DNA of 35,686 bases from a virus (Duplodnaviria > Heunggongvirae > Uroviricota > Caudoviricetes). The DNA is taken from the IMG/VR virus record IMGVR_UViG_2923302340_000008, one strand, 5' to 3'. The notes beneath the pieces are model-generated. The model did no database searches. It was not told the origin of the DNA and worked only from the letters and a program-made list of their open reading frames with translations. Below, one piece after another: positions 8,622-33,065 of this stretch (position 1 is the stretch's first letter; the number at the start of each line of letters is the position of its first letter). The translations under genes and the position numbers were made by a program.

Positions 8622-10178
8622 ATGAATGCCTATAAATTCAGAAATAATGATGAGATTGGAAAATTAGAGGCGGAAACTGATTCTTATCTTGATGCTTGTT
8701 TTTATGAGTCCAATGTTTTTAAAGGTATTGTGAATTTTGACTCTACTGAGAAGAATCCTGATTTTACAAGAAGAATTATTGTTGGAAGAACAGGAAGCGG
8801 TAAGTCTGCGTTGCTTAAAAAAATATTAGACAAAGGAAATATTAAGCTGCATGACACAATAGAGGCAGAAAATACGATATTTGAACATATTAATAACAAT
8901 GTGTTTATATCTGATTTGATCTCGAAAGGGATAGATTTACGTGGGTTTTATAAATCGTTATGGCTGCATGTATTACTTATGAAAGTTATACCAGCCGTTT
9001 ATCGTTCTTCCTATCAAAGCTTTTTTGAGGAAATTAAAGATCTTATTGGTGGTAAGAAGAAACCGTATAAACCAGAAGTTGCGAATGATTATATTGAACA
9101 ATTTAAAGAAAATTTCTTCAATGATAAAGCGCTCATTGAAATAAGTAACAAGCTTGAAAGTGATTTGTCATTCAAACTCGGAAATTCCGCTGTTGGTGTG
9201 GGTGGTAAAATATCTAATTCTGATACAGCCAAAATACAATCAGAAACTTCAAGTTATGTGAGTCGTGAACTTCTTTTTAAACAAAAAGAACTTATTAAAA
9301 TACTTAAAGAGGAGTTCGCTGACTCAAACCAGGTTAGAATAGTAATCAGTATCGATGATTTAGATAAATCTTGGTTAAGCACGAGCGCCATCAGATATGA
9401 CTTTATTAATGCTCTTCTTGAGGCCTTTCGAGAATTATTAGATATAAAGTCGGTTAAGGTTCTGATATCAATAAGAACAGATATTTTAATGGGAATTTAT
9501 AAAAGTAGTTTAAGGCAGGATGAGAAAGATCAATCTTTAATATATTCCATATCATGGAATAAAACGGAAATAAGAGAGATTATTGATGCTAGAATTAACC
9601 ATTTGGTTAAAAATAGATATCAATCAAATAAGTCTGTATTAATGAAGGATATTTTTAATTTTACAGTTGAAGGTATTGGAGCAGATGATTATATCCTTGA
9701 CAGAACAATGCTTAGGCCTAGAGATGCAATTAATTTCGTAAATATATGTCTTTCTGAGTGCGATGGTATGGTTAACATGAATGAAAATATTGTGTTAATT
9801 GCCGAAGAGAAATTTTATTCGTCCAGAAAGAGAGCTTTGGTTACAGAATGGAAAAGCATATATCCGTTTATCGAAGAATATTTGGATGTGCTTTCCTTGA
9901 TTTCATTTTCTGATTTTACAGTCTCAAACATAGGACAAGCAGTAAAAGATGATATATCGCAGCATTTACTTGATAGATTGACTGTAGTTAAAGAGGATGA
10001 TCAACATACAAAAATATTGATGAATTTTGAGGAGTTACTTAAAGTCTGGTTCGTCGTAGGCGTGGTTGGCATAAGGAAAACAGTATCTTTAATTTTATAT
10101 TCATCTTTTGATAAACCTAATTTGGATATTACTGATATGAAGAGAGATTTTGTAATACATCCGTTGTTTGATAGGTAA
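8622..10178 (+). CDS. AT-rich P-loop NTPase of unassigned family (candidate defence or abortive-infection protein)
   Basis: 518-aa ORF. Walker A is IIVGRTGSGKSALLKKI near residue 55. Walker B-like VRIVISIDDLDKSW lies near residue 243. Candidate sensor and arginine motifs are ISIRTD and LRPRD. Base composition is markedly AT-rich versus flanks. A TATAAT hexamer sits at 8578..8583 and a GGAG RBS upstream. Confidence 0.75.
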   Translation: MNAYKFRNNDEIGKLEAETDSYLDACFYESNVFKGIVNFDSTEKNPDFTRRIIVGRTGSGKSALLKKILDKGNIKLHDTIEAENTIFEHINNNVFISDLISKGIDLRGFYKSLWLHVLLMKVIPAVYRSSYQSFFEEIKDLIGGKKKPYKPEVANDYIEQFKENFFNDKALIEISNKLESDLSFKLGNSAVGVGGKISNSDTAKIQSETSSYVSRELLFKQKELIKILKEEFADSNQVRIVISIDDLDKSWLSTSAIRYDFINALLEAFRELLDIKSVKVLISIRTDILMGIYKSSLRQDEKDQSLIYSISWNKTEIREIIDARINHLVKNRYQSNKSVLMKDIFNFTVEGIGADDYILDRTMLRPRDAINFVNICLSECDGMVNMNENIVLIAEEKFYSSRKRALVTEWKSIYPFIEEYLDVLSLISFSDFTVSNIGQAVKDDISQHLLDRLTVVKEDDQHTKILMNFEELLKVWFVVGVVGIRKTVSLILYSSFDKPNLDITDMKRDFVIHPLFDR

Positions 10179-12440: not shown

Positions 12441-12457
12441 TTTTGTGGAGTAAGTTG

Positions 12458-12835
12458 ATGCGTGATATTCAGATGGTTCTTGAGCGTTGGGGGGCATGGG
12501 CGGCTAATAATCATGAAGATGTGACCTGGTCGTCCATTGCCGCCGGTTTTAAGGGATTAATTCCTTCAAAAGTAAGATCTCGTCCGCAATGCTGTGACGA
12601 TGACGCGATGATCATTTGTGAATGTATGGCTCGCCTGAAAAAAAACAACAGCGATTTACATGATTTATTGGTGGACTATTATGTCGGCGGCATGACTTTT
12701 ATGGCGCTTGCACGTAAGCATGGGCGATCTGATTGTTGGGTTGGCAGGATGCTCCAGAAAGCTGAGGGCGTAGTGGAGGGCATGCTGATGGTGTTGGATC
12801 TCCGATTGGAGATGGATGCTGATTGTTCGAAATAA
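12458..12835 (+). CDS. Putative late-gene antiterminator Q
   Basis: 125-aa ORF ([21 protein letters not shown]…) with a Cys cluster. It sits at the Q position and is followed by a promoter-like sequence and a strong terminator. Confidence 0.55.
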
Positions 12836-12935
12836 TCAAAGGAAAAGTTGCTGTCTGATTTTCATTAGTCTAACATTTTAAATGTTGGAATCGCAACGTA
12901 GTTATTATCATATAACAGCTTGTTTCCTGATTTAG

Positions 12936-12962
12936 CCAGCCTCCCCAAAGGCTGGTTTTTTT
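12936..12962 (+). terminator. Rho-independent terminator (candidate tR' after Q)
   Basis: CCAGCC-tccccaaa-GGCTGG hairpin followed by seven T residues. Confidence 0.7.
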
Positions 12963-12990
12963 CTAATAAGTATCATTTCGGGTGGGGATT

Positions 12991-13515
12991 TTATTGTTTA
13001 ACCCATAATAGTTCATTGACATTGAATCCCAACTTTTGAGCGGTACGCACATAGTCTGCTTTTACATTATCTGGAATAGTTTGGGTCCTTGCCAGAATCC
13101 ATAGGTATTCTCTGTTCGGACCACTGACAAGAGCATACTTATACTCATCATCCAGCTTGATTACATTATAGCCACCATAGAAGGGGCCAAAAAACGAAAC
13201 TTTCAACGCTGCAGTTTTAGTATCTCCAGTAAAGTATGCTTTACCTTCGCTCTCGCTCCATTTGTTTTTCGTTGGATCGTATCCACGGTTAAGTACGCGA
13301 ATCCCTCCGTCGTTCCGTTTTTCATAAGTAGCGCTGACTTGTTCCAGACCACGTTCGAACCAGTTCTCGAGGCGAGCTATTTCATACCATTTTCCGAGGT
13401 AGCGGTTGGCGTCAAAATTTGTAATCGGCTGCACACCTTTAGGTGGTGTCGGGGCCTTACATGCTATAAGAGTGAAAGAGAGTGCAATGCCAGTCAACAC
13501 AGGCCATAACTTCAT
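12991..13515 (-). CDS. blc: Blc-like outer-membrane lipocalin lipoprotein (moron)
   Basis: 174-aa ORF with a signal peptide and lipobox (LIAC). Lipocalin-like motifs (NFDANRYLGKWYEIARLENWFERG) are present. Confidence 0.75.
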   Translation of the reverse strand: MKLWPVLTGIALSFTLIACKAPTPPKGVQPITNFDANRYLGKWYEIARLENWFERGLEQVSATYEKRNDGGIRVLNRGYDPTKNKWSESEGKAYFTGDTKTAALKVSFFGPFYGGYNVIKLDDEYKYALVSGPNREYLWILARTQTIPDNVKADYVRTAQKLGFNVNELLWVKQ

Positions 13516-13707
13516 AATAAATCCTGTACTTTTGATAGTTGAGAGTAAGTATGAAAGATAGATGAGTACGACCGATCACTTAAAGAACTTTCCTACTATA
13601 TTAGGAATAGTCCATAACAGAAAAATTGTCAGTGATGAAGCCAGAAAGGCAATTTAGTCCGTGCATTACAAAGTTTATGTGTTAATGAATTAGTCAAGGG
13701 GGAGGAA

Positions 13708-14667
13708 ATGATAAAAAAACCTGTGATTGGGATCAGCGGTTGTTTGGGCGGTTCTGCTGTTCGTTTTGATGGTGGTCACAAAAGAGATGACTTTTTAATG
13801 GACAAATTAGTGGAATGGGTAACATTCAGACCAGTATGTCCGGAAATGGCTATAGGGCTGCCAGTTCCGCGTCCTGCTCTACGACTTGTGCGCTCGAAGC
13901 AAGGAAATATACGGATGTGTTTCAGCCACGACCAGAATGAGGATGTGACAGAGAGAATGACAGAGTTTAGTCGTTCTTATATGGACAAATTAAAGGATGT
14001 ATCGGGGTTTGTGGTTTGTGCTAAATCTCCCAGCTGTGGCATGGAGCGCGTGCGTGTCTATGATGAAAATGGTAATCGAGGTCGTAAAGATGGAGTGGGA
14101 CTATTTACGAGCACTTTGATGGAAAAGTTTTCCTGGCTACCGGTTGAAGAGGATGGGCGATTACATGATCCAGTGCTTCGTGAGAATTTTATTGAAAGAG
14201 TTTTTGCTTTGCATGAGCTCAATCATCTTTACAAGGAGAAATTATCAAGAAGAGAGTTATTAGCTTTTCATAGTCGTTATAAGCTTCAGTTGTTGGCGCA
14301 TAGCCAGGCAGGCTATAAAGATATGGGACCATTTGTGGCTGCAATACACGAGTGGGCGGACCTTGAATCATACTTTGAGGTGTATCGTGATAATCTGATG
14401 GCGATTCTCAGAAAACCAGCATCACGTAAAAATCACACGAATGTGCTGATGCATATACAGGGGTATTTTAGTAATTACTTAAGTACACGCCAGCGTAAAG
14501 AGTTGAGCGAGGTTATACTTAACTATCGCTTTGGCACATTGCCTCTTCTTGCGCCGTTGACTCTGCTGAAGCATTATCTGGGTGAGTATCCTAATGATTA
14601 CTTGCTTACACAGAATTACTTCGATCCCTATCCGGAAGAACTGGCTCTAAGACTGATGGTGAATTAA
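13708..14667 (+). CDS. DUF523/DUF1722 fusion protein (TudS-like Cys-rich N-domain with YbgA-like C-domain)
   Basis: 319-aa ORF. The N-terminus GISGCLGGSAVRFDGGHK plus further conserved Cys residues suggest DUF523. The C-terminal half is helical, as in DUF1722. This assignment is from memory. Confidence 0.55.
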   Translation: MIKKPVIGISGCLGGSAVRFDGGHKRDDFLMDKLVEWVTFRPVCPEMAIGLPVPRPALRLVRSKQGNIRMCFSHDQNEDVTERMTEFSRSYMDKLKDVSGFVVCAKSPSCGMERVRVYDENGNRGRKDGVGLFTSTLMEKFSWLPVEEDGRLHDPVLRENFIERVFALHELNHLYKEKLSRRELLAFHSRYKLQLLAHSQAGYKDMGPFVAAIHEWADLESYFEVYRDNLMAILRKPASRKNHTNVLMHIQGYFSNYLSTRQRKELSEVILNYRFGTLPLLAPLTLLKHYLGEYPNDYLLTQNYFDPYPEELALRLMVN

Positions 14668-14759
14668 CTGTATGCGATATCATCTGAAAGTGATGAGTTC
14701 CTGTATGCAGGATATTTACAATCGTAAAAACTACGCTATGATGCCCATTGGATTTGCCC

Positions 14760-15665
14760 CTATATTTCCAGACATCTGTTATCACTTAACCCATTACAGG
14801 CCCGCTGCCGCAGATATTCCCGTGGCGAGCGATAACCCAGCGCACTATGCGGATGCCATTCGTTATAATGCTCGAACGCCTCTGCAAGGTTCTTTGCTGC
14901 CGTTAACCCGTCTGGTTTGGGCATGATACTGATGTAGTCACGCTTTATCGTTTTCACGAAGCTCTCTGCTATTCCGTTACTCTCCGGACTCCGCACCGCC
15001 GTGTTCTTCGGTTCAAGTCCCAACATCCGGGCGAACTGGCGTGTTTCATTAGCCCGGTAGCATGAACCATTATCCGTCAGCCACTCCACTGGAGACGACG
15101 GAAGATCGTTGCCGAAGCGGCGTTCCACCGCTCCCAGCATGACGTCCTGTACTGTTTCACTGTTGAAGCCGCCAGTAGTCACCGCCCAGTGCAGTGCCTC
15201 ACGATCACTGCAGTCCAGCGCGAACGTGACACGCAGTCTCTCTCCGTTATCACAGCAGAACTCGAACCCGTCAGAGCACCATCGCTGATTGCTTTCTTTC
15301 ACGGCCACTCTGCCTGTATGTGCCCGTTTCGATGGCGGTACAGCAGGTTTTCGCTCAAGCAACAGCGCATTCTGGCGCATGATCCGGTAAACACGTTTGG
15401 CATTGATCGCAGGCATACCATCAAGTTCTGCCTGTCTGCGAAGCAGCGCCCATACCCGACGATAACCATACGTGGGCAGCTCTCCGATAACATGGTGTAT
15501 ACGGAGAAGCACATCCGTATCATCAGTGTGACGACTGCGGCGGCCATCCATCCAGTCATCGGTTCGTCTGAGAATGACGTGCAACTGCGCACGCGACACC
15601 CGGAGACAACGGCTGACTAAGCTTACTCCCCATCCCCGGGCAATAAGGGCGCGTGCGCTATCCAC
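14760..15665 (-). CDS. insD: IS2 transposase InsD (OrfB)
   Basis: 301-aa product [23 protein letters not shown]… matches recalled IS2 InsD. DDE integrase core. Confidence 0.9.
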
Positions 15666-15988
15666 TTTTTTGCCCGTCCATATTCAACGGCTTCTTTGAG
15701 GAGTTCATTTTCCATCGTTTTCTTGCCGAGCAGGCGCTGGAGTTCTTTAATCTGCTTCATGGCGGCAGCAAGTTCAGAGGCAGGAACAACCTGTTCTCCG
15801 GCGGCGACAGCAGTAAGACTTCCTTCCTGGTATTGCTTACGCCAGAGAAATAACTGGCTGGCTGCTACACCATGTTGCCGGGCAACGAGGGAGACCGTCA
15901 TCCCCGGTTCAAAGCTCTGCTGAACAATTGCGATCTTTTCCTGTGTGGTACGCCGTCTGCGTTTCTCCGGCCCTAAGACATCAATCAT
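15623..15988 (-). CDS. insC: IS2 InsC (OrfA)
   Basis: 121-aa product [24 protein letters not shown]… matches recalled IS2 InsC. It overlaps the insD start, as expected for a frameshift fusion. Confidence 0.85.
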
Positions 15989-16400
15989 CTGTTCTCCAAT
16001 GACTAGTCTAAAAACTAGTATTAAGACTATCACTTATTTAAGTGATACTGGTTGTCTGGAGATTCAGGGGGCCAGTCTACCCATAGTGTCAGTTTGTATA
16101 AAAATCCTGTTCACGCTAAAGAAAACATTGAGATGCAATTTAATGTTGGTAAACATACCAGCCCCAAAAGATTTTATTCAATCTGTTTTTATATGAAGAT
16201 ATTTCAAGTGAATATTAAGAGCATATAATATTATTATTGCACGCAGCTATTATAATATAACAGATTAGTTTAATGATTTGTTTTTTGTGAGTTAAACACA
16301 TGGTTTTATAGTTGTGATGCAATGAGATTTTCCTTATTGTTGAACTGGCGAATATTGATTTTCCACCTATACTTACCTGGTGTAACCCCAATGATATCAG

Positions 16401-17123
16401 GTGGATAATATGCCATACATATGTTCTATCATTTTGGTGTTGAACTCGTTTGGTGTCCGAATTGGTAAAGAAGATATTTTGTTTAAAAAAGGAAATGCTG
16501 TCCTCATTGAATACAATTTAAAAGATCTTTTTTCGTCAAATACAGATCATCTAATGATCGTAGATGTTGAGGAGAAAACAGTTAATGATTTCTTTAAAAA
16601 CTACACACTCTCACCTTTTTCTGTAAGAAGGTTTTATCCGTCATACTTGATAGTAGAATGTGAAGATTTTTCATTGTTAAGGAACTTGGTTGCATGCTTG
16701 AATTGTGATAGCAAAACCGTGGATGTAGTTAGAAATCAAATATCACTTGCATGTCTTGCTGTCTTATCTTCAGAGAAAATAGTGCAAAGTTTTTTGTTCG
16801 GAAGTCTTAATAGCTTAGGTTGTAAAGTTAAGGCTATTATTCACTCGGATATCTCAGCGTCATGGAGACTTTGTGATATATCTTCAAGATTATATATGAG
16901 CGAGAGTTTGTTAAAAAGAAAATTAAAAGACGAAGGATTATCGTTTAGTAAATTAATTCTTGAAGAACGAATGATGATGGCGCAAAGATTATTGATCTAC
17001 AGTAACCATACTGTCGGCAAGGTGGCGGGAATATGCGGGTATGACAATGCATCATATTTTGTAAGTGTTTTTAGAGGATATTTTGGTGTGCCTCCGCACC
17101 AATATTTATCAAGATTTTCTTAG
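16401..17123 (+). CDS. AraC/XylS-family transcriptional regulator (AppY/PatE-like)
   Basis: 240-aa ORF in a strongly AT-rich segment. The C-terminus carries an AraC-type HTH (…KVAGICGYDNASYFVSVFRGYFGVPPHQY). Confidence 0.75.
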   Translation: MDNMPYICSIILVLNSFGVRIGKEDILFKKGNAVLIEYNLKDLFSSNTDHLMIVDVEEKTVNDFFKNYTLSPFSVRRFYPSYLIVECEDFSLLRNLVACLNCDSKTVDVVRNQISLACLAVLSSEKIVQSFLFGSLNSLGCKVKAIIHSDISASWRLCDISSRLYMSESLLKRKLKDEGLSFSKLILEERMMMAQRLLIYSNHTVGKVAGICGYDNASYFVSVFRGYFGVPPHQYLSRFS

Positions 17124-17313
17124 AAGATATGATGTGATGGCATTTTATAAAGTTATTTTTTGAAGTGTAAGATTATACGATATTTTTAGCTACGCCAGAA
17201 TAATTGCTGGCGTTTTTCTTTTTGAATAGATGTTCGGGCCTTACGCTAATGTAACTTCTTTCCTTCTTCGAACCAAACCGTGTACACCATCCGTTATCTG
17301 CGGAGGTGAGGCT

Positions 17314-17529
17314 ATGAAATCCATGGATAAGTTAACAACGGGCATCGCCTACAGCACCTCTGCAGGCAGTGCTGGCTACTGGTTTTTACAGTTGCTCGAT
17401 AAAGTCACGCCCTCACAGTGGGCGGCAATAGGTGTATTGGGTAGTCTGGTATTTGGCATGCCGACGTATCTGACAAACCTTTATTTCAAGATTAAAGAAG
17501 ACAGGCGTAAGGTTGCGAGAAGAGAGTAA
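17314..17529 (+). CDS. Class II holin (S21-like pinholin)
   Basis: 71-aa product with dual start MKSM and motif [15 protein letters not shown]…[13 protein letters not shown]…[15 protein letters not shown] resembling recalled S21. GGAGG RBS. Confidence 0.8.
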
Positions 17530-18405: not shown

Positions 18406-19433
<1,028 letters not shown>

Positions 19434-21909: not shown

Positions 21910-22404
21910 ATGGATCGAGAGTTAAAAAATCTGACGCTGAATATCAGTCAACTGGCGGCATTGTCAGGTGTACATCGCCAGACTGCTGCGGCAAGGCTGC
22001 AAAATCTACCCGTTGCAGGGGGGCATGAAAGCAACCTCAAGCTTTATCGGGTGGTTGATATTGTGTCGGCATTTCTGGCATTACCACCGCCGGTTGCAGA
22101 AGGCGAAATGGACGCGCATGAGCGCAAAGCCTGGTATCAGTCTGAACGTGAGCGTCTTAAGTTCGAACAGGAAACGGCACAACTCATTCCGGCCAGTGAT
22201 GTCAGACGGGAGTTTGCCATCTGGGCAAAAGCGGTCGTGCAGGTGCTGGAGACATTACCGGATATTCTTGAACGTGACTGCGGTCTGCAGCCTGCCGCTG
22301 TGAGCCGTGTTCAGTCCATTATTGATGATCTGCGCGATCAGATAGCCCTGCGGGTGACTGAAGCAGGTGCGGATGATGAGGAGGAATTACAGCAGGAGGA
22401 GTAA
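21910..22404 (+). CDS. Terminase small subunit (Nu1-like)
   Basis: 164-aa ORF with an N-terminal HTH and acidic C-terminus. It is immediately upstream of, and overlaps, the terminase large-subunit gene. Confidence 0.7.
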   Translation: MDRELKNLTLNISQLAALSGVHRQTAAARLQNLPVAGGHESNLKLYRVVDIVSAFLALPPPVAEGEMDAHERKAWYQSERERLKFEQETAQLIPASDVRREFAIWAKAVVQVLETLPDILERDCGLQPAAVSRVQSIIDDLRDQIALRVTEAGADDEEELQQEE

Positions 22405-24506
22405 TGCTGAATCAGGAAACCGCAAAGGCAGCACGAACCGATTCAGGTTATATCCTTCGCGCACCGAGACGAATGCGGGTTGCTGATGCCGTTGCTCAGT
22501 ATATGCGGGTGCCCATGGGGGCAGGGAACTCAGTCCCGTGGGATCCGCTGGTGGCACCGTATGTTATTGAGCCTATGAACTGCCTGGCCTCGCGTGAATA
22601 CGACGCAGTGATATTTGTTGGCCCGGCACGAACCGGCAAGACTATCGGCCTGATTGACGGCAGGGTGATTTACAACGTGATTTGCGATCCTGCTGATATG
22701 CTGATCATTCAGATGACGGAGGAAAAAGCCCGCGAACACTCCAAAAAACGACTCGCCAGAACGTTTCGCGTCAGCCCGGAAGTGGTCAGTCGCCTGAGTC
22801 CGAACAAAAATGACAACAACGTTTATGACCGAACATTCCTTGCTGGCAACTACCTGAAAATCGGCTGGCCGTCAGTCAATATCATGTCTTCATCAGATTA
22901 TAAATGCGTGGCGCTGACGGATTATGACCGTTTTCCGGAAGATATTGATGGTGAGGGGGATGCCTTCTCTCTTGCCTCAAAACGTACCACCACATTTATG
23001 TCCAGTGGTATGACGCTGGTGGAGAGTTCCCCCGGCAGGGATGTGAAGGATGTGAAATGGCGACGGACTTCACCGCATGAGGCTCCACCAACCACGGGGA
23101 TCCTGTCGCTCTATAACCGTGGCGATCGCCGTCGCTGGTACTGGCCCTGTCCACACTGTGGTGAGTATTTTCAGCCCTGCGGCGATGTGGTTGCTGGTTT
23201 CCGTGATATTGCCGATCCTGTGCTGGCAAGTGAGGCGGCTTATATTCAGTGTCCTTCCTGTTCAGGACGGATTTTGCCTGAACAAAAACGCGAGCTGAAC
23301 GGACGTGGGGTCTGGTTACGGGATGGTGAATCCATCAATGCAGATGGCAGTCGTTATGGTGATCCCCGGCGTTCACGTATTGCGTCATTCTGGATGGAGG
23401 GTCCGGCAGCTGCTTATCAGACACTCTCGCAACTCGTTTACAAACTGCTTACTGCAGAACAGGAATACGAGACAACCGGAAGTGAAGAGACACTCAAGAC
23501 GGTTATCAATACCGACTGGGGATTACCTTATCTTCCCCGCGCCAGCATGGAGCAACGAAAAAGTGAATTGCTTGAGCAGCGGGCAGAGCCAGTTCCTTCC
23601 CGCAGTGTGCCGGATGGCGTTAATTTCCTTGTGGCGACAGTGGATGTGCAGGCGGGACATCATCGCCGTTTTGTGGTTCAGGTAACGGGCTATGGCAGCC
23701 GTGGCGAACGCTGGATTATTGATCGTTACAACATCACGCAGTCATTGCGCGGTGACAGCGACGGGGAGAGCCAGCGAATTGATCCGGCCAGCTATCCGGA
23801 AGACTGGGATGTCCTGCTGACGGATGTTTTTCATAAAAGCTGGCCGCTGGCCTCCGATCCTTCTCAACAAATGCGACTGATGGCAATGGCGGTGGACTCC
23901 GGCGGTGAAGACGGGGTCACTGATAATGCCTATAAATTCTGGCGTCGTTGCCGTCGTGATGGCCTTGGTAAACGTATTTACCTGTTTAAGGGCGACAGCA
24001 TCCGGCGCGCAAAACTGATCACCCGTACATTCCCTGATAACACCGGACGAACGGGCCGACGGGCGCAGGCCGCAGGTGATGTACCGCTCTGGCTTCTTCA
24101 GACGGATGCCCTGAAAGACCGGGTGAATAACGCGTTATGGCGTGACTCGCCAGGTCCCGGCTATGTGCATTTCCCTGACTGGCTGGGGAGCTGGTTTTAC
24201 GACGAACTGACGTATGAAGAGCGGAGCAGTGACGGGAAATGGAGTAAGCCGGGTCGCGGTGCCAACGAAGCTTTTGACCTGATGGTGTATGCCGAGGCTC
24301 TGGTCATTCTGCATGGATACGAAAAGATCCGCTGGCCGGATGCACCGGAGTGGGCGAGCCGGGAAACCTGGCTGGAGTGTGTCCCGGACAGTACCGAACC
24401 GTCACCCACACCGGAACCGGTATCCACGCCTGTTAAAAAACAAAAACGGAAGAAAACAGTAACTGACGATGTTAACCCCTGGCTGACTTCCGGAGGATGG
24501 TTATGA
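22404..24506 (+). CDS. Terminase large subunit (gpA-like)
   Basis: 700-aa ORF with Walker A (VGPARTGKT), acidic motifs, and position between Nu1-like and W/portal genes. Confidence 0.85.
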   Translation: MLNQETAKAARTDSGYILRAPRRMRVADAVAQYMRVPMGAGNSVPWDPLVAPYVIEPMNCLASREYDAVIFVGPARTGKTIGLIDGRVIYNVICDPADMLIIQMTEEKAREHSKKRLARTFRVSPEVVSRLSPNKNDNNVYDRTFLAGNYLKIGWPSVNIMSSSDYKCVALTDYDRFPEDIDGEGDAFSLASKRTTTFMSSGMTLVESSPGRDVKDVKWRRTSPHEAPPTTGILSLYNRGDRRRWYWPCPHCGEYFQPCGDVVAGFRDIADPVLASEAAYIQCPSCSGRILPEQKRELNGRGVWLRDGESINADGSRYGDPRRSRIASFWMEGPAAAYQTLSQLVYKLLTAEQEYETTGSEETLKTVINTDWGLPYLPRASMEQRKSELLEQRAEPVPSRSVPDGVNFLVATVDVQAGHHRRFVVQVTGYGSRGERWIIDRYNITQSLRGDSDGESQRIDPASYPEDWDVLLTDVFHKSWPLASDPSQQMRLMAMAVDSGGEDGVTDNAYKFWRRCRRDGLGKRIYLFKGDSIRRAKLITRTFPDNTGRTGRRAQAAGDVPLWLLQTDALKDRVNNALWRDSPGPGYVHFPDWLGSWFYDELTYEERSSDGKWSKPGRGANEAFDLMVYAEALVILHGYEKIRWPDAPEWASRETWLECVPDSTEPSPTPEPVSTPVKKQKRKKTVTDDVNPWLTSGGWL

Positions 24507-24715
24507 ATCAGAATGATATTGAAGCCATGATTCAGCGTTATACGGAAGCTGAAATGGCGGCGCTGGACGGAAAATCCGTCACTTTTAATGGTCAGCAGAT
24601 GACCATGGAAAACTTATCTGAGATCCGGCAGGGGCGGCAGGAGTGGGAGCGCCGCCTTGCGGCTCTGATTACACGACGACGGGGGCATCCCGGGTACCGG
24701 CTGGCGAGGTTCTGA
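24503..24715 (+). CDS. Head-tail joining protein gpW-like
   Basis: 70-aa product whose C-terminus (…ITRRRGHPGYRL…) resembles recalled lambda gpW. GGAGG RBS. Its stop overlaps the portal start (TGATG). Confidence 0.65.
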   Translation: MNQNDIEAMIQRYTEAEMAALDGKSVTFNGQQMTMENLSEIRQGRQEWERRLAALITRRRGHPGYRLARF

Positions 24716-26223
24716 TGGCAATTCTTGATGATGTGATTGGCGTTTTTTCACCAGGATGGAAAGCGGCAAGGCTGCGTTCCCGAGCGGTGATCCAGGCTTA
24801 TGAGGCCGTAAAAACGACGCGGACACACAAAGCCCGACGGGAGAACCGAACTGCCGACCAGTTAAGCCAGTACGGGGCCGTGTCGTTACGTGAGCAGGCC
24901 CGTTACCTTGATAACAACCACGATCTGGTCATTGGTGTATTTGACAAGCTGGAAGAACGGGTGGTGGGGAAAAACGGGATTATTGTCGAGCCACATCCGG
25001 TATTACGCAATGGTGCCATTGCCCGTGACCTGGCAGCGGAGATACGTACCCGATGGAGTGAATGGTCTGTCAGTCCGGAAGTCACCGGGCAGTTTACCCG
25101 TCCGATGCTGGAACGTCTGATGCTGCGTACCTGGCTGCGCGATGGTGAGGTGTTTGCCCAGATGGTTTCCGGGCGCATAAACAGCCTGACGCCTTCTGCC
25201 GGTGTTCATTTCTGGCTGGAGGCGCTCGAGCCGGACTTTATTCCCATGACCAGTGATGAGAGCAACAGGCTGAATCAGGGCGTGTTTGTTGATGACTGGG
25301 GGCGTCCCGAAAAATATCTGGTGTATAAAAGTCGTCCTGTATCCGGACGGCAGATGGAAACCAAAGAAGTGGATGCAGAGCGAATGCTGCATCTTAAATT
25401 TGTTCGCCGTCTGCACCAGATGCGCGGGACGTCTTTATTGTCCGGTGTGCTGATCCGCCTCAGCGCCCTGAAAGAGTATGAAGATTCTGAGCTGACTGCA
25501 GCAAGGATCGCCGCTGCTCTGGGGATGTACATCCGGAAAGGCGACGGACAGAGCTATGAAACGGATGGTAATGACAGCAAGGAGAATGAACGCGAGCTTA
25601 CCATTCAGCCAGGCATTATTTACGACGATCTGAAACCCGGCGAAGAAATCGGAATGGTGAAGTCGGATCGTCCCAATCCTAACCTTGAAACTTTTCGTAA
25701 TGGTCAGTTGCGTGCCGTGGCGGCGGGCAGTCGTCTGAGTTTTTCCAGTACGGCACGCAACTATAACGGCACTTACAGCGCCCAGCGTCAGGAACTGGTT
25801 GAGTCTACTGATGGCTACCTGATCCTGCAGGACTGGTTTATTGGTGCCGTCACCCGCCCGATGTATCGTGCCTGGCTGAAACAGGCTGTGGCATCCGGTG
25901 TTATCAGGCTACCCCGCGATCTTGACCGTTCTTCACTGTATACCGCGGTGTATTCCGGACCAGTGATGCCGTGGATTGACCCTGTTAAGGAGGCTGAGGC
26001 CTGGAAAATCCAGATTCGTGGTGGAGCGGCGACAGAATCAGACTGGGTACGTGCTGGTGGTCGTAATCCGGATGATGTCAAACGTCGGCGCAAGGCCGAA
26101 ATTGATGAAAACCGCAAGCTGGATCTGGTATTTGATACCGATCCGGCCAGTGATAAAGGAGGCAGCAGTGCCGCAACGAAACGACAGGAGCCGCAGCACA
26201 CCGACGACCAGTCCGAAGAATAA
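24715..26223 (+). CDS. Portal protein (gpB-like)
   Basis: 502-aa ORF following gpW with translational coupling. Size and position match lambda-type portal. Confidence 0.8.
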   Translation: MAILDDVIGVFSPGWKAARLRSRAVIQAYEAVKTTRTHKARRENRTADQLSQYGAVSLREQARYLDNNHDLVIGVFDKLEERVVGKNGIIVEPHPVLRNGAIARDLAAEIRTRWSEWSVSPEVTGQFTRPMLERLMLRTWLRDGEVFAQMVSGRINSLTPSAGVHFWLEALEPDFIPMTSDESNRLNQGVFVDDWGRPEKYLVYKSRPVSGRQMETKEVDAERMLHLKFVRRLHQMRGTSLLSGVLIRLSALKEYEDSELTAARIAAALGMYIRKGDGQSYETDGNDSKENERELTIQPGIIYDDLKPGEEIGMVKSDRPNPNLETFRNGQLRAVAAGSRLSFSSTARNYNGTYSAQRQELVESTDGYLILQDWFIGAVTRPMYRAWLKQAVASGVIRLPRDLDRSSLYTAVYSGPVMPWIDPVKEAEAWKIQIRGGAATESDWVRAGGRNPDDVKRRRKAEIDENRKLDLVFDTDPASDKGGSSAATKRQEPQHTDDQSEE

Positions 26224-26236
26224 TTCCTGGTTCAGG

Positions 26237-28045
<1,809 letters not shown>

Positions 28046-28111
28046 ATTTTATAACCCATAACGGGCGTCAGAAATGACGCCTTTTTTATTGCAGAAAAGC
28101 GAGAGGTAATT

Positions 28112-28711
28112 ATGCGTAAACTTTATGCCGCCATTTTGTCCGCAGCCATTTGTCTGGCCGTATCCGGTGCGCCTGCATTGGTGTCTGAACATCAGTCCAC
28201 GCTGAGCGCGGGGTATCTTCATGCCTCGACGAACGTTCCCGGCAGCGATGATCTGAACGGGATTAACGTGAAATACCGTTATGAGTTTACGGACACACTA
28301 GGGATGGTGACGTCATTCAGCTATGCAGGAGACAAGAATCGCCAGCTGACCCATTACAGCGATACCCGCTGGCATGAAGACTCCGTTCGTAACCGCTGGT
28401 TCAGCGTGATGGCGGGGCCGTCTGTGCGCGTGAATGAATGGTTCAGCGCGTATGCGATGGCGGGTGTGGCTTACAGCCGTGTGTCGACTTTCTCCGGGGA
28501 TTATCTCCGCGTAACTGACAACAAGGGGAAAACGCACGACGTGCTGACCGGAAGTGATGACGGTCGCCACAGCAACACGTCTCTGGCGTGGGGAGCTGGC
28601 GTGCAGTTTAACCCGACCGAATCCGTGGCCATTGATATTGCTTATGAAGGCTCCGGCAGTGGCGACTGGCGCACTGACGGTTTCATCATGGGTGTCGGTT
28701 ATAAGTTCTGA
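28112..28711 (+). CDS. lom: Lom/Ail/PagC-family outer-membrane beta-barrel protein
   Basis: 199-aa ORF with a signal peptide and C-terminal aromatic residue (…GVGYKF). Its position between J and stf matches lambda. Confidence 0.8.
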   Translation: MRKLYAAILSAAICLAVSGAPALVSEHQSTLSAGYLHASTNVPGSDDLNGINVKYRYEFTDTLGMVTSFSYAGDKNRQLTHYSDTRWHEDSVRNRWFSVMAGPSVRVNEWFSAYAMAGVAYSRVSTFSGDYLRVTDNKGKTHDVLTGSDDGRHSNTSLAWGAGVQFNPTESVAIDIAYEGSGSGDWRTDGFIMGVGYKF

Positions 28712-28738
28712 TTAGCCAGGTAACACAGTGTTATGACA

Positions 28739-28764
28739 GCCCGCCGGTTCAGGCGGGCTTTTTT
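28739..28764 (+). terminator. Rho-independent terminator after lom
   Basis: GCCCGCC-ggttca-GGCGGGC hairpin followed by TTTTTT. Confidence 0.7.
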
Positions 28765-28775
28765 GTGGGGTGAAT

Positions 28776-31700
28776 ATGGCAGTAAAGATTTCAGGTGTAC
28801 TGAAAGACGGCACAGGAAAACCGGTACAGAACTGCACAATCCAGCTGAAAGCAAAACGTAACAGTACCACGGTGGTGGTGAACACGCTGGCCTCAGAAAA
28901 TCCGGATGAAGCCGGGCGTTACAGCATGGACGTTGAGTACGGGCAGTACAGCGTTATTCTGTTGGTGGAAGGATTCCCGCCGTCACATGCCGGGATCATC
29001 ACCGTGTATGAAGATTCTCAACCCGGTACGCTGAATGATTTTCTCGGTGCCATGACGGAGGATGATGCCCGTCCGGAGGCACTGCGCCGTTTTGAACTGA
29101 TGGTGGAAGAGGTGGCGCGTAACGCGTCCGTGGTGGCACAGAACACGGCAGTCGCGAAGAAGTCAGCCGGCGATGCCGGCACATCTGCCCGTGAGGCGGC
29201 AACCCATGCGACTGATGCTGCAGGCTCAGCACGCGCAGCCAGCACGTCAGCCGGACAGGCCGCTTCGTCGGCTCAGTCAGCGTCTTCCAGCGCAGGAACG
29301 GCATCAACAAAGGCCACTGAAGCGGAAAAAAGTGCTGCCGCTGCAGAGTCCTCAAAAAGCGCGGCGGCCATCAGTGCCGCTGCGGCGAAAACGTCAGAAA
29401 CGAATGCGGCAGAGTCACAACAATCAGCAGCCACTTCTGCATCCACCGCGACCACGAAAGCGTCAGAAGCTGCCACCTCAGCCCGGGATGCGTCAGCTTC
29501 AAAAGAGGCGGCAAAATCATCAGAAACGAGCGCAGCCTCGAGCGCCAGCAGCGCAGCTTCCTCGGCAACGGCGACAGCAAATTCTGCGAAGGCGGCAAAA
29601 ACGTCCGAGACGAACGCTAAGTCTTCTGAAACGGCAGCGGGACAGAGTGCCTCAGCTGCGGCAGGCTCAAAAACAGCGGCTGCGTCGTCTGCCAGTGCCG
29701 CGTCAACAAGTGCCGGGCAGGCCTCAGCCAGTGCCACCGCTGCCGGAAAATCGGCAGAAAGCGCCGCATCGTCCGCTTCAACAGCCACAACGAAGGCTGG
29801 CGAAGCCACTGAACAGGCCAGTGCAGCAGCGAGGTCTGCTTCCGCAGCGAAGACATCCGAGACGAACGCGAAAGCGTCGGAAACCAGCGCAGAATCCTCA
29901 AAAACGGCTGCCGCATCGTCCGCCAGTTCGGCGGCGTCATCGGCATCATCTGCGTCTGCTTCAAAAGATGAGGCGACCAGACAGGCGTCAGCAGCGAAGG
30001 GCAGCGCCACGACGGCATCCACGAAGGCGACAGAGGCTGCTGGTAGTGCGACGGCAGCAGCTCAGAGCAAAAGTACGGCGGAATCTGCAGCAACGCGCGC
30101 TGAGACAGCGGCAAAACGGGCAGAGGATATTGCATCCGCCGTGGCGCTTGAGGATGCGAGCACGACGAAAAAGGGGATAGTACAGCTCAGTAGTGCGACT
30201 AACAGCACTTCCGAGTCACTGGCGGCAACACCAAAAGCCGTTAAGGCCGCGTATGACCTGGCTAACGGGAAATACACCGCACAGGATGCAACGACAGCAC
30301 AGAAAGGGATAATCCAGCTAAGCAGCGCGACCAACAGCACGTCTGAAACGCTGGCGGCAACGCCAAAGGCAGTAAAAGCAGCCAATGACAATGCTGAGAA
30401 ACGTCTGCAGAAAGATCAGAACGGTGCGGATATCCCTGGCAAAGACACCTTTACGAAAAATATTGGTGCCTGCCGTGCCTTCGGTGGGTCAGTAAGCACA
30501 ACAACAGGAAACTGGACGACTGCACAGTTTATCGAGTGGCTGGATTCTCAGGGAGCATTTAACCATCCATACTGGATGTGCAAGAGTTCCTGGTCTTATG
30601 GCAATAATAAAATCATTACTGATACTGGCTGCGGTAATATTCATCTCGCCGGAGCTGTCATTGAAGTAATGGGGATAAAGTCAGCGATGACGATCCGCAT
30701 TACCACTCCGACCACATCCAGCGGTGGCGGAACAACCAACGCCCAGTTTACCTATATTAATCACGGAACAGATTATTCACCTGGCTGGCGAAGGGACTAT
30801 AACTCCAGAAATAAGCCAACGGCATCAGAGATCGGGGCGCTACCGTCAGGTGGAACAGCAGTATCATCAGTTAATCTGGCTTCAAAAGGTCGGGTAGCCG
30901 CGCTGACAGACAATACGCAGGGGGCAGCAGGTCTTGAGTTATACGAGGTGTATAACAACGGATATCCAACAGCGTATGGAAATATCATTCACCTGAAAGG
31001 GATGACAGCCGTTGGCGAAGGTGAGTTACTCATCGGCTGGAGTGGTACAAGCGGTGCTCATGCTCCGGCATTTATTCGTTCACGACGGGATACGACCGAC
31101 GCAAACTGGTCGCCGTGGGCGCAGCTTTACACCTCAGCTCATCCTCCTGCAGAGTTTTATCCAGTCGGTGCACCAATCCCGTGGCCATCAGATACCGTTC
31201 CGTCTGGTTATACCCTGATGCAGGGGCAGACTTTTGACAAATCTGCATACCCGAAACTTGCAGCCGCTTATCCGTCAGGCGTGATCCCTGATATGCGTAG
31301 CTGGACGATTAAGGGCAAACCTGCCAGTGGTCGGGCCGTATTGTCTCAGGAACAGGACGGCATTAAATCGCACACCCACAGCGCCAGCGCATCCAGTACG
31401 GATTTGGGGACGAAAACCACATCGTCGTTTGATTACGGCACTAAATCCACGAATAACATCGGGGCGCATACGCACAGTGTGAGCGGTACAGCCGCAAGTG
31501 CCGGAAACCATACTCATAGTGTCACAGGCGCATCAGCAGTCAGCCAGTGGTCACAAAATGGGTCAGTACATAAGGTAGTGTCTGCGGCCAGTGTGAATAC
31601 AAGTGCTGCAGGAGCGCACACTCATAGTGTCAGCGGCACAGCTGCATCTGCAGGTGCTCACGCACATACTGTCGGTATTGGTGCTCATACGCACTCTGTT

Positions 31701-31802
31701 GCGATTGGCTCACATGGACACACCATCACCGTTAACGCTGCTGGTAACGCGGAAAACACCGTCAAAAACATCGCATTTAACTATATTGTGAGGCTTGCAT
31801 AA
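28776..31802 (+). CDS. stf: Side tail fibre protein Stf (lambda orf401/orf314-type)
   Basis: N-terminus [26 protein letters not shown]… and C-terminus …[28 protein letters not shown] closely match recalled lambda Stf. A long Ala/Ser-rich repetitive core is present. Confidence 0.9.
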
Positions 31803-32474: not shown

Positions 32475-33065
32475 TTATATATCAGGTGTCTGATTTTTTG
32501 CTTTAGCTCTTAAAATGGTTTGCCGCGAGGTTTTGAATTCTTGGGCAATGTCACTTATATTTATACCTGACTTAATTTGCTCTAGTACCCTCTGTATTTG
32601 TTCATCATTTAACACAGGTGGGCGACCAAATCGCTTTCCTGCGCCCCGTGCTCTTAATATCCCTGAATGAGTACGCTCAAGTAAAAGGTCTCGCTCAAAT
32701 TCAGCGACTGCTGAAATTACTTGCATCATCATTTTTCCAGGTGGACTGGTCAGGTCAACGCCCCCCAATGCTAAGCAATGCACTTTGATACCTGCTTTGG
32801 TCAGTTGTTCCACCGTTTTACTGATATCCATTGGATTACAACCGAGGCGATCCAGTTTTGTGACAATCAATGCATCACCTCTTTTCAGTCGATCAAGCAA
32901 CTGGTTAAAACCAGGACGCTCACTGGTTGCTGCTGAGCCGCTAATTTGTTCTTCAATTATTTGCTGAGATTTGATGTTAAAACCTGCACTTTCGATTTCC
33001 CGACGTTGATTTTTGGTTGTTTGTTCCAGAGTTGATACCCGACAGTAAGCATAAATTCGAGACAT
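32475..33065 (-). CDS. pin: Serine recombinase / DNA invertase (Pin/Gin/Hin family)
   Basis: 196-aa product [15 protein letters not shown]… has the catalytic Ser near the N-terminus and a C-terminal HTH. Length matches PinQ/PinR. Confidence 0.9.

Follow-up and report, generated by a model that had tools for sequence, protein, structure and literature searches.

The stretch of DNA analysed here (the window; 35,686 nucleotides, IMG/VR virus record IMGVR_UViG_2923302340_000008) comes from a Qin-like, lambda-like defective prophage of E. coli that adjoins rspB. The head and tail genes of this decayed prophage are gone, and it carries two IS insertions. Two divergent genes lie in the region between its late-gene antiterminator and its lysis genes. 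A Blc-type lipocalin lipoprotein of 174 amino acids is encoded on the minus strand (12991..13515), antisense to the phage late transcript, and the 319-residue fusion protein RudS is encoded on the plus strand (13708..14667), in the orientation of the late operon. Each open reading frame opens with ATG, and the two start codons are 192 bp apart, separated by a divergent intergenic region (13516..13707). These are exactly the genes and the shared spacer that an earlier, sequence-only reading of the window had described.

The upstream edge of the cargo slot is formed by the Q antiterminator gene (12443..12835, plus strand), which encodes 130 amino acids and matches Pfam Phage_antitermQ (PF06530, E=8e-51). 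It is followed on the same strand by a G+C-rich hairpin (12934..12957) and a T-run, together spanning 12934..12965; the terminator scan gave a 9-pair stem with 5 G-C pairs, then TTTTTTTC. The convergent lipocalin gene has its 3' end 26 bp away from this structure, which is kept in phage 1H12. Judged by its sequence, the hairpin is likely to serve as a tR'-type terminator that ends the short pR' transcript. At E<=0.1, Rfam returned a sole, sub-threshold match, which lies on this hairpin, and ARAGORN detected no tRNA genes in the window.

Downstream, about 80 bp past the rudS stop codon, an IS2 element lies on the minus strand (about 14746..16082, with orfA at 15623..16033 and orfB at 14760..15665). 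Its boundaries were set by alignment with locus L001 and phage 1H12, both of which are without IS2 at that site. The element occupies this position in one of 80 IMG/VR loci; it is strain-specific and lies outside the cargo module. Beyond it is a gene for an AraC-family regulator of 240 amino acids (16401..17123, plus strand; HTH_18 and HTH_AraC matches), set in a stretch of 32% G+C. The best NCBIfam matches of this protein are YdeO and GadX-like, far under cutoff, and it is 76% identical to 1H12 gp67. The lysis cassette starts with a holin (ORF 17230..17529, plus strand; residues 26-99 match PHROG phrog_9876 and phrog_20), whose true start is probably inside this ORF, and lysozyme and Rz-like ORFs follow at 18406..19433. 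The order along the window is Q, terminator hairpin, lipocalin and rudS, and then, past IS2 and the AraC-like gene, the holin. The pair had been placed between the Q terminator and the lysis cassette in the earlier reading also, with IS2 and the AraC-family gene left unmentioned.

The lipocalin and the fusion protein

The lipocalin matches Pfam Lipocalin_2 (PF08212, E=7.5e-43) and the NCBIfam Blc model NF007786 (312.6 bits, cutoff 267), covering model positions 1-174 of 176, and phmmer matches it to the crystal structure of E. coli Blc (3mbt, 8e-67). Read directly from the sequence, its N-terminus is MKLWPVLTGIALSFTLIAC followed by K, with the lipobox L-I-A-C19 and Lys at +2 (K20); in alignment, this region falls at the N-terminus of mature E. 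coli Blc. A lipocalin with a lipobox is what the earlier reading had proposed. The non-Asp residue at +2 fits sorting to the outer membrane, which is the predicted location. Blc itself binds lysophospholipids or fatty acids and is associated with the outer membrane. The closest described relative is gp65 of phage 1H12 (96% identity, dN/dS 0.09). Identity to the housekeeping Blc of E. coli is only 59%, and this value and the prophage location argue against orthology with chromosomal blc. The phage protein is nearer to lipocalins that are divergent from a MerR operon in other Enterobacterales (73-80% identity).

RudS joins an N-terminal TudS/DUF523 domain (PF04463, 2-thiouracil desulfurase, E=5.8e-40; residues 7-149, full profile 1-141) to a C-terminal DUF1722 domain in the same polypeptide (PF08349, E=9.4e-40; residues 192-309, profile positions 1-117 of 117). 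These scores, together with that for Lipocalin_2, exclude chance ORFs for both genes. The Pfam profiles that had been named as a check on the earlier assignments (DUF523, DUF1722 and Lipocalin_2) all matched, and the description of a TudS-like DUF523 domain fused to a YbgA-like DUF1722 domain stands. The protein is matched by phmmer to TudS 6z92. Its C12, C44 and C110 align with the cluster cysteines C10, C43 and C104 of TudS, and E46, S107 and S109 align with TudS E45, S101 and S103. All six residues are invariant in 14 homologues, in which R55 also lies within an invariant PxPRP motif. The catalytic set was mapped to E51, S111, S113 and R60 of RudS_KT by positional offset only. In the DUF1722 domain, the ASR motif (S239/R240) is invariant among the homologues compared. 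The same cysteine numbering, C12/C44/C110, applies to RudS_vir and RudS_ST (PMC11417400, Table 1).

A structural model from AlphaFold2, based on a 14-sequence alignment, was mediocre (pLDDT 67). The top Foldseek match of this model, and its only PDB fold, was TudS 6zw9 (probability 1.00), with no PDB fold matched by the DUF1722 part. The model recovered TudS alone and is of modest quality, and thus adds little beyond the sequence evidence.

RudS is 92% identical to gp66 of phage 1H12 (RudS_vir), with 26 substitutions between two proteins of 319 amino acids and a dN/dS of 0.14. When overexpressed in E. coli, RudS_vir (H3V29_gp66) lowered 4-thiouridine (s4U) in tRNA (Jamontas 2024, NAR, PMC11417400). 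Because of the 92% identity to this assayed phage enzyme, and because all catalytic residues are kept, the fusion protein of the window is, by sequence, RudS, a tRNA 4-thiouridine desulfidase that takes away this light-sensitive sulfur mark. A link to tRNA modification, suggested earlier on the basis of the domains, is therefore borne out by the RudS architecture and by the assayed relative. The TudS domain would hold a [4Fe-4S] cluster on C12, C44 and C110 and, with E46, R55, S107 and S109, would swap the sulfur of s4U8 for oxygen hydrolytically, and the DUF1722 domain would dock on the anticodon arm of the tRNA.

Distribution, selection and origin

Of 5426 complete E. coli genomes, 1046-1150 (about 19-21%) carry the lipocalin-rudS pair, which is also present in 145 IMG/VR contigs and in 12 deposited phages, so that its earlier description as unusual cargo does not hold. 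EAEC 042 is one natural carrier. Among 80 IMG/VR loci, 77 have Q upstream of the pair, and 73 have an AraC-like gene 3' of rudS. The commonest architecture (68 of the 80 loci) has the lipocalin gene on the minus strand and Q, rudS, araC and the holin gene on the plus strand in the order Q, lipocalin, rudS, araC, holin; phage 1H12 shows this order too. The lipocalin, RudS and the AraC-type regulator make up a cargo module that is conserved among the lambdoid phages of E. coli and lies in the slot from Q/tR' to the lysis genes.

Purifying selection acts on both genes. Their dN/dS is 0.09-0.14, measured between lineages whose dS is 0.20-0.28, and in the window both genes are full-length and intact despite the loss of the head and tail genes of the prophage. 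E. coli has been said to be without RudS (PMC11417400; likewise a 2026 review). This is contradicted by the intact prophage copies in about 19-21% of complete genomes, and it follows that tRNA s4U and near-UV responses may vary between strains according to prophage content. Such differences, if present, would matter for epitranscriptome and photobiology work outside K-12.

Chromosomal relatives of the two genes occur together in Enterobacterales. In searches seeded with RudS, a divergent upstream lipocalin was present in 11 of the 20 closest chromosomal loci (RudS 67-75% identity), and these lipocalins are 73-80% identical to that of the window. The locus consists of a lipocalin gene divergent from MerR(MlrA-like)-SnoaL2-SDR-amine oxidase-DUF1365-CFA synthase-like-DUF2878-orf175-DUF3833-RudS, with a full form in L015, short forms in L016-L028 and a minimal form in L026. 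Similarly, searches seeded with the lipocalin found relatives in Cedecea and Klebsiella that are also divergent from a MerR-SnoaL2-SDR-AmOx-DUF1365-CMAS operon. A divergent upstream lipocalin was found in none of 54 photolyase-linked RudS loci, a clade with 54-63% identity. Judged by this synteny, the phage lipocalin and rudS appear to be the two ends of the enterobacterial chromosomal locus, and the phage version would have dropped the MerR gene and the lipid-modification genes in the middle.

No near-identical chromosomal donor was found (best RudS 75%, best lipocalin 80%), so synteny is the argument for joint capture. That the lipocalin clade is exclusively RudS-linked was considered and rejected. 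In Pantoea sp. At-9b, for example, a lipocalin of similar identity lies near carotenoid genes with no RudS within 5 kb, and the RudS operons of Citrobacter have no lipocalin. Consequently, the idea of co-capture is based on synteny and not on phylogeny. In Salmonella Derby, where RudS lies beside ttcA, neither a lipocalin nor a Q remnant was found there.

The regulatory DNA was not inherited from the sampled chromosomal forms, since DNA matches between the phage spacer and the spacers of the chromosomal lipocalin-MerR, MerR-RudS and lipocalin-RudS pairs are confined to the coding edges. A tblastn search of the whole window, spacer included, with the MlrA-like MerR of Serratia as query detected no MerR remnant (best E=0.97), and there is no photolyase near the pair. 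The phage copy is therefore not in a light-responsive operon of the PhrB-LitR/MerR-RudS type, defined by an adjacent MerR/LitR regulator and/or photolyase. RudS genes are frequently found in light-responsive operons (PMC11417400), DUF1365 is UfaO, found in the R. sphaeroides ChrR/sigmaE operon, and in V. cholerae, blue light induces both a MerR-phr operon and a gene resembling CFA synthase. By analogy, the domain content of the enterobacterial operon seems to resemble that of singlet-oxygen and blue-light regulons.

Transcription and possible roles

Accessory genes directly downstream of Q/pR'-tR' that are co-oriented with the late genes are necessarily transcribed under Q antitermination. The terminator scan gave no convincing terminator after tR' and ahead of rudS. 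Since rudS is co-oriented with the late operon, gene order implies that it is transcribed whenever Q antiterminates. On the same gene order, the enzyme would be produced late in lytic growth, typically after UV/SOS induction. Erasure of s4U would then forestall s4U8-C13 photocrosslinks, uncharged tRNA and a stringent slowdown of translation. The lipocalin gene is antisense to the late transcript and so should need its own promoter, expected in the conserved block at 13516-13640. Its product is most likely an envelope protein expressed in the lysogen.

The spacer is 192 bp long in 77 of 79 IMG/VR loci and, at its rudS end, carries a strong ribosome-binding site (GGAGG) for that gene. Compared with 1H12, identity is ~96% over the lipocalin-proximal 125 bp (13516-13640) and ~78% over the rudS-proximal 65 bp, with third codon positions (synonymous sites, 84-89% identity) as the yardstick. 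The lipocalin-proximal block is thus more conserved than synonymous sites, which suggests regulatory sites. Standard and relaxed scans of the spacer for sigma-70 promoters returned weak matches only, at or below the yield from shuffled sequence, and the same scans gave no strong match for pR'; pR' and the cargo promoters are consequently left unassigned. Lambdoid morons are accessory genes set between phage functional modules, dispensable to the lytic or lysogenic cycle and equipped with a promoter and a terminator of their own. As candidate morons, the two genes have the expected place between Q with its terminator and the holin, and promoters of their own are only weakly predicted. The cargo interpretation offered earlier agrees with this position, and blc is already a listed lambda moron.

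It is plausible, though somewhat short of probable, that both genes serve lysogenic conversion. They would be expressed in the lysogen from the spacer, possibly via the AraC-like regulator, for the benefit of the host, with late read-through being incidental. RudS would tune tRNA s4U and cut the near-UV growth delay, and the lipocalin would act on the outer membrane, repairing or buffering it. The conservation of the lipocalin-proximal 125 bp above the synonymous level is consistent with such regulation, and so are the persistence of two intact genes under purifying selection in a prophage unable to make virions and the retention of the pair in ~20% of E. coli genomes. Overexpressed RudS lessens the cell's own UVA growth delay; with RudS_KT it was about 60 min instead of about 105 min. 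The blc moron, found in more than half of a set of 19 lambda phages from the infant gut, has already been read as a fitness moron (Mathieu 2020). However, the rudS-proximal part of the spacer is variable and has no convincing rudS promoter, the light-responsive MerR regulator of the chromosomal copies is gone, and rudS has the late-operon orientation with no strong predicted terminator in between.

A more tentative proposal, possible but doubtful, is that the lipocalin and RudS are a two-part photoprotection kit that lambdoid phages excised from either end of a UVA/singlet-oxygen locus under MerR control and brought under Q read-through and AraC-like control; the kit would aid late protein synthesis and burst size. 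Upon induction by sunlight or UV, RudS would remove s4U from host tRNA. Without photocrosslinked, uncharged tRNA as a stringent trigger, late phage proteins would be made and the burst would be larger. If this were true, tRNA s4U and near-UV growth delay in lysogens would be a strain-variable trait set by the prophage in ~1/5 of E. coli.

Less likely again is TudS-like salvage or detoxification, in which the phage RudS would act mainly on free 4-thiouracil or on 4-thio-UMP from tRNA turnover. The TudS domain is complete. The desulfidation of tRNA by RudS_vir is lower than that by RudS_ST at comparable protein levels, and its lag on 4-thiouracil is the shortest among the RudS enzymes tested (PMC11417400), which together indicate that tRNA may not be the only substrate. 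Nevertheless, no RudS variant, RudS_vir included, supported growth of a uracil auxotroph on thiouracils as stand-alone TudS does, and every RudS enzyme tested reduced tRNA s4U (PMC11417400). The tRNA-binding DUF1722 domain is also fully kept, with S239/R240 of its ASR motif invariant. Desulfidation of the free base, put forward earlier as a thiouracil assay, is not the main activity of the RudS family.

Anti-phage defence or superinfection exclusion, in which the pair would change tRNA or nucleotide pools and the lipocalin would change the cell surface, is very improbable. Accessory genes are known to gather in this slot, and these phages commonly carry membrane-associated morons such as sie and bor (Mathieu 2020), but the lipocalin, RudS and the AraC-like protein had no match in PADLOC-DB at E<=0.01, there is no toxin-like partner, and the chromosomal relatives lie in stress, lipid-modification or photolyase operons rather than in defence islands. 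The earlier suggestion of nucleotide-pool defence finds no support, given the same PADLOC result and the difference of RudS variants, the phage one included, from TudS in growth on thiouracils. There is equally little to recommend neutral hitch-hiking, the persistence of the pair purely by linkage to a Q allele and a lysis cassette that are themselves successful, which would fit the tight linkage to one Q type, AraC and holin genes but not the low dN/dS at the dS given above, the full-length ORFs with all catalytic residues, or the survival of the genes in a decayed prophage with two IS insertions.

The best overall explanation, and probably the right one, is that of a lambdoid cargo module with RudS, the lipocalin and the AraC-type regulator, including the origin and roles proposed for it here. 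The phage enzyme and the phage lipocalin have both been described in close relatives, so that the finding itself is largely known and adds little. New here are the synteny link to the enterobacterial locus, the near-constant AraC-like third gene, the prevalence in E. coli and the purifying selection. The synteny with the lipocalin and MerR to RudS locus provides a testable idea for the tRNA 'eraser' in a UV-inducible phage, and a lead to the role of this lipocalin clade. In the literature on the lipocalin-RudS linkage or on DUF1722 in prophages, nothing was found beyond Jamontas 2024 and Mathieu 2020.

Comparison with known systems

The nearest described system is RudS_vir of phage 1H12, which has the same neighbours as the window: Q, an opposite-strand lipocalin, an AraC-like gene and a holin. 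1H12 is a viable lambda-like phage, whereas the window copy belongs to a defective, Qin-like prophage beside rspB and has IS2 just downstream. The chromosomal RudS of Enterobacterales (Salmonella LT2 STM1389/ORF319, that is, RudS_ST, and those of Citrobacter, Enterobacter and Serratia) is equal in length, architecture and cysteine numbering, has 70-75% identity and often has a divergent upstream lipocalin, as in the phage. However, it follows a MerR(MlrA-like) gene and, in many cases, an eight-gene lipid-modification-like operon, and the phage copy has neither.

E. coli YbgA (b0707, ybgA-phr operon) is related through DUF1722. The NCBIfam YbgA model matches window RudS residues 161-315 with 189 bits, below the equivalog cutoff of 237. 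The PGAP label for the window RudS is 'YbgA family'. YbgA is without the catalytic TudS domain, and when growth on thiouracils was assayed it gave the same result as the negative control (PMC11417400). TudS (PDB 6Z92/6ZW9) has the fold of the RudS N-terminal domain, and its Glu/Ser/Ser catalytic set and all three cysteines of the cluster recur in RudS, but it has ~31% identity, has no DUF1722 and rescues uracil auxotrophs on thiouracils, which RudS does not do likewise. E. coli Blc (PDB 1QWD/2ACO/3MBT) has the Lipocalin_2 fold, the lipobox and the SCR1 motif GxWYEIAR in common with the phage lipocalin.

The slot itself is well known. In lambdoid phages, the region from Q to the lysis genes holds stx and tRNA genes in Stx phages, with bor and lom located elsewhere in lambda, and the Qin prophage of K-12 holds cspF and cspB in the slot that is occupied here by the pair. 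While the cargo of the Stx-phage slot consists of toxin and tRNA genes, that of the window is an RNA-modification eraser, a lipocalin and a regulator.

The divergent pair and its prophage setting

Two intact genes are transcribed divergently between the Q terminator and the lysis genes of the window, as the sequence-only reading had placed them. The lipocalin gene (12991..13515, minus strand) encodes 174 aa and rudS (13708..14667, plus strand) encodes 319 aa, with 192 bp between their two start codons (13516..13707). They belong to an E. coli lambdoid prophage of Qin-like type, whose integration site adjoins rspB. Upstream of the pair are Q (12443..12835, PF06530) and a G+C-rich hairpin with a T-run (12934..12957). 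Downstream are an AraC-family gene (16401..17123) in a stretch of 32% G+C, a holin within the ORF 17230..17529, a DUF1327 gene, and then lysozyme and an Rz-like gene.

Eighty IMG/VR loci, from 145 hits in total, were analysed for module order. The lipocalin gene lies next to rudS on the opposite strand in 79 of them, and the spacer is 192 bp in 77 of these 79. An AraC-like gene is found 3' of rudS in 73 of the 80 loci, and this Q lies upstream in 77.

The prophage is defective, since most of the head and tail genes of L001, a related prophage, are absent (region 22404-31802), with an IS3-family transposase in their place. This transposase (26340..27386, with rve domains) comes after a portal-sized ORF (24643..26223) and is followed by tail-fibre genes (28770..31802). 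A copy of IS2 (~14746..16082, minus strand; orfA 15623..16033, orfB 14760..15665) is inserted ~80 bp past the stop codon of rudS and ahead of the AraC-like gene. In strain L001, IS2 instead interrupts the lipocalin gene at its 5' end; as the sites differ, the cargo slot may be a target region for IS2. Near the right end are a Pin-type serine invertase (32475-33065, Resolvase and HTH_7) and then an MFS transporter (34403-35686), which is probably host DNA.

Identity of the two products

Pfam searches bore out both domain assignments of the sequence-only reading. The rudS product joins a 2-thiour_desulf/DUF523 domain (residues 7-149, E=5.8e-40) to DUF1722 (residues 192-309, E=9.4e-40), and this TudS-DUF1722 architecture identifies it as a member of the RudS family. 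As described by Jamontas et al. 2024 (PMC11417400), enzymes of this family remove the sulfur of 4-thiouridine (s4U) from tRNA; TudS forms their catalytic core with its [4Fe-4S] cluster, and contact with the anticodon arm is made by DUF1722. The single viral enzyme tested in that study, RudS_vir, is gp66 of Escherichia phage 1H12, a phage among the matches of a DNA search with the window. The two proteins are 92% identical across all 319 residues. The earlier guess of a role in tRNA modification is borne out.

The alignments indicate that the full set of catalytic residues is kept. C12, C44, C110, E46, S107, and S109 align with C10, C43, C104, E45, S101, and S103 of the stand-alone desulfidase TudS; together with R55 and the S239/R240 motif, they are invariant among 14 aligned homologues. 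The cluster cysteines of RudS_vir are likewise Cys12, Cys44, and Cys110, and mutation of the equivalent residues in RudS_KT abolished or reduced activity (PMC11417400). The AlphaFold2 model is of moderate confidence (pLDDT 67), and its sole PDB fold match is TudS. Overexpression of each tested RudS variant, RudS_vir among them, reduced the s4U of tRNA in E. coli; at a similar protein level RudS_vir was less active than RudS_ST from Salmonella, and the lag on 4-thiouracil was shortest with RudS_vir (PMC11417400). Overexpression of RudS_KT shortened the UVA growth delay from ~105 to ~60 min.

The first gene is, on its profile matches, a Blc-type lipocalin (Lipocalin_2, E=7.5e-43; 312.6 bits against the curated NCBIfam Blc cutoff of 267). 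Its N-terminus (MKLWPVLTGIALSFTLIAC-K) reads as a lipoprotein signal, with the lipobox Cys19 and a +2 residue other than Asp. The protein shares 96% identity with 1H12 gp65 and 59% with the housekeeping Blc of E. coli. Comparison of the window with 1H12 gives a dN/dS of 0.09 for the lipocalin gene and 0.14 for rudS.

Chromosomal relatives and proposed origin of the pair

The nearest RudS proteins outside E. coli are chromosomal, with 70-75% identity, in Citrobacter, Enterobacter, Serratia, Klebsiella, and others. Eighty genomic loci of RudS relatives were fetched and searched by tblastn. The operon of the closest clade (L009-L028) ends with RudS: MerR(MlrA-like)-SnoaL2-SDR-amine oxidase-DUF1365-CFA synthase-like-DUF2878-orf175-DUF3833-RudS. 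An upstream, opposite-strand lipocalin, 73-80% identical to that of the window, occurs in 11 of these 20 loci. Pseudescherichia vulneris (L015) carries the full form of the locus. Serratia rubidaea and Enterobacter species have a short form, in which the lipocalin diverges from MerR-RudS, and Kluyvera cryocrescens (L026) has a minimal one, where lipocalin and RudS diverge across a 112-bp spacer within non-phage flanks. In a distant clade (54-63% identity), a RudS-photolyase operon was confirmed in both loci scanned (L054, L037), and the divergent lipocalin was absent from all 54 loci by tblastn.

Light-responsive operons are a frequent site of RudS genes (PMC11417400). The R. sphaeroides ChrR/sigmaE operon includes a DUF1365 protein, UfaO, and an amine oxidase-like enzyme, UfaD; in V. 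cholerae, blue light induces both a MerR-phr operon and a CFA synthase-like gene. By domain content, the enterobacterial operon thus resembles singlet-oxygen and blue-light regulons.

From synteny, we infer an origin of the phage pair in the opposite ends of such a locus, lipocalin divergent from MerR...RudS. Synteny is the basis because the searches gave no close donor and members of the lipocalin clade also occur apart from RudS. A lipocalin-seeded search recovered Cedecea and Klebsiella relatives also divergent from the MerR operon, and a Pantoea relative near carotenoid genes. The phage version yielded no MerR remnant, and its spacer is unrelated to the chromosomal spacers.

Two further settings were observed. 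In Photobacterium (L085, L087, L088), RudS lies a few kb upstream of a SnoaL2-SDR-amine oxidase-DUF1365-CFA synthase-like-orf175 cluster, which extends this link beyond Enterobacterales; in L085 and L087, a MerR-type gene directly follows RudS. In Salmonella (L005 4285-6960, L006 1885-4663), a 73% identical RudS adjoins a phage DUF1367 gene and ttcA, a tRNA 2-thiocytidine synthase-type ATP_bind_3 gene, so that thiolase and desulfidase are neighbours. This region, in which no lipocalin or Q remnant was found, may have been left behind by a Rac-like prophage.

Possible roles and comparison with known phage cargo

By homology, RudS would desulfurate s4U8 of host tRNA. Gene order suggests that rudS is co-transcribed with the lysis genes upon Q antitermination, as it is co-oriented with the late operon and no convincing terminator follows the 12934-12957 hairpin. 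The lipocalin gene is antisense to this transcript and would need its own promoter, so its expression in the lysogen is probable. UV induces lambdoid prophages. s4U8-C13 crosslinks slow translation (PMC11417400). Given both, a late-expressed s4U eraser could shield the synthesis of late proteins. In the main rival reading, the two genes are host-fitness morons acting in the lysogen, and retention of the pair in a prophage missing most head and tail genes fits it. A salvage role of RudS on free thiobases is a minor alternative, and the defence role raised by the sequence-only reading found no support in PADLOC. Elsewhere in the prophage, a 518-aa P-loop NTPase (8622-10178; weak KAP_NTPase and nSTAND1 matches; RefSeq name, Sll1717 family) is encoded between hokD and the replication genes, in an island of 31% G+C. 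This is a typical site of prophage defence genes; the NTPase had no PADLOC match.

Promoter scans of the spacer were uninformative. Between the window and 1H12, spacer identity is ~96% over the lipocalin-proximal 125 bp, higher than at third codon positions (84-89%), and ~78% over the rudS-proximal 65 bp, a pattern suggestive of conserved control sites close to where the lipocalin gene starts. Two similar 10-mers in the conserved part (13516-13640), GATAGTTGAG and GATAGATGAG, ~22 bp apart, may be regulator-binding sites. The AraC-like regulator, whose best NCBIfam matches (YdeO and GadX-like) are far under cutoff, could control the spacer or host acid-resistance genes.

The cargo had been thought unusual, but it is common. 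Of 5426 complete E. coli genomes, 1150 matched a 1677 bp query spanning the pair; at least 80% of the query was covered in 1046 of the 1150, nearly always by a single copy on the chromosome. TudS and RudS homologues have been described as lacking in E. coli (PMC11417400), a view restated in a 2026 review, and these counts qualify it. A 3.2-kb contig binned as a Candidatus Nanosynbacter MAG (L029) carries an AraC-like gene and a RudS fragment with 92% identity to the window protein; here a piece of E. coli prophage has almost certainly been mis-binned with Saccharibacteria.

Both genes are already on record as phage cargo, through RudS_vir (PMC11417400) and the blc moron (PMC6969025), although both families are labelled ‘unknown function’ in PHROGs v4. 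Mathieu et al. 2020 (PMC6969025), who isolated 1H12 and the Lambda_ev phages, list blc as a moron and place it in over half of 19 lambda phages from the infant gut. What is added here is modest: the chromosomal origin proposed for the pair, the constant third AraC-like gene, and the prevalence figure. In phage 1H12, the gene order of the module is identical to that of the window, and the AraC-like proteins are 76% identical.
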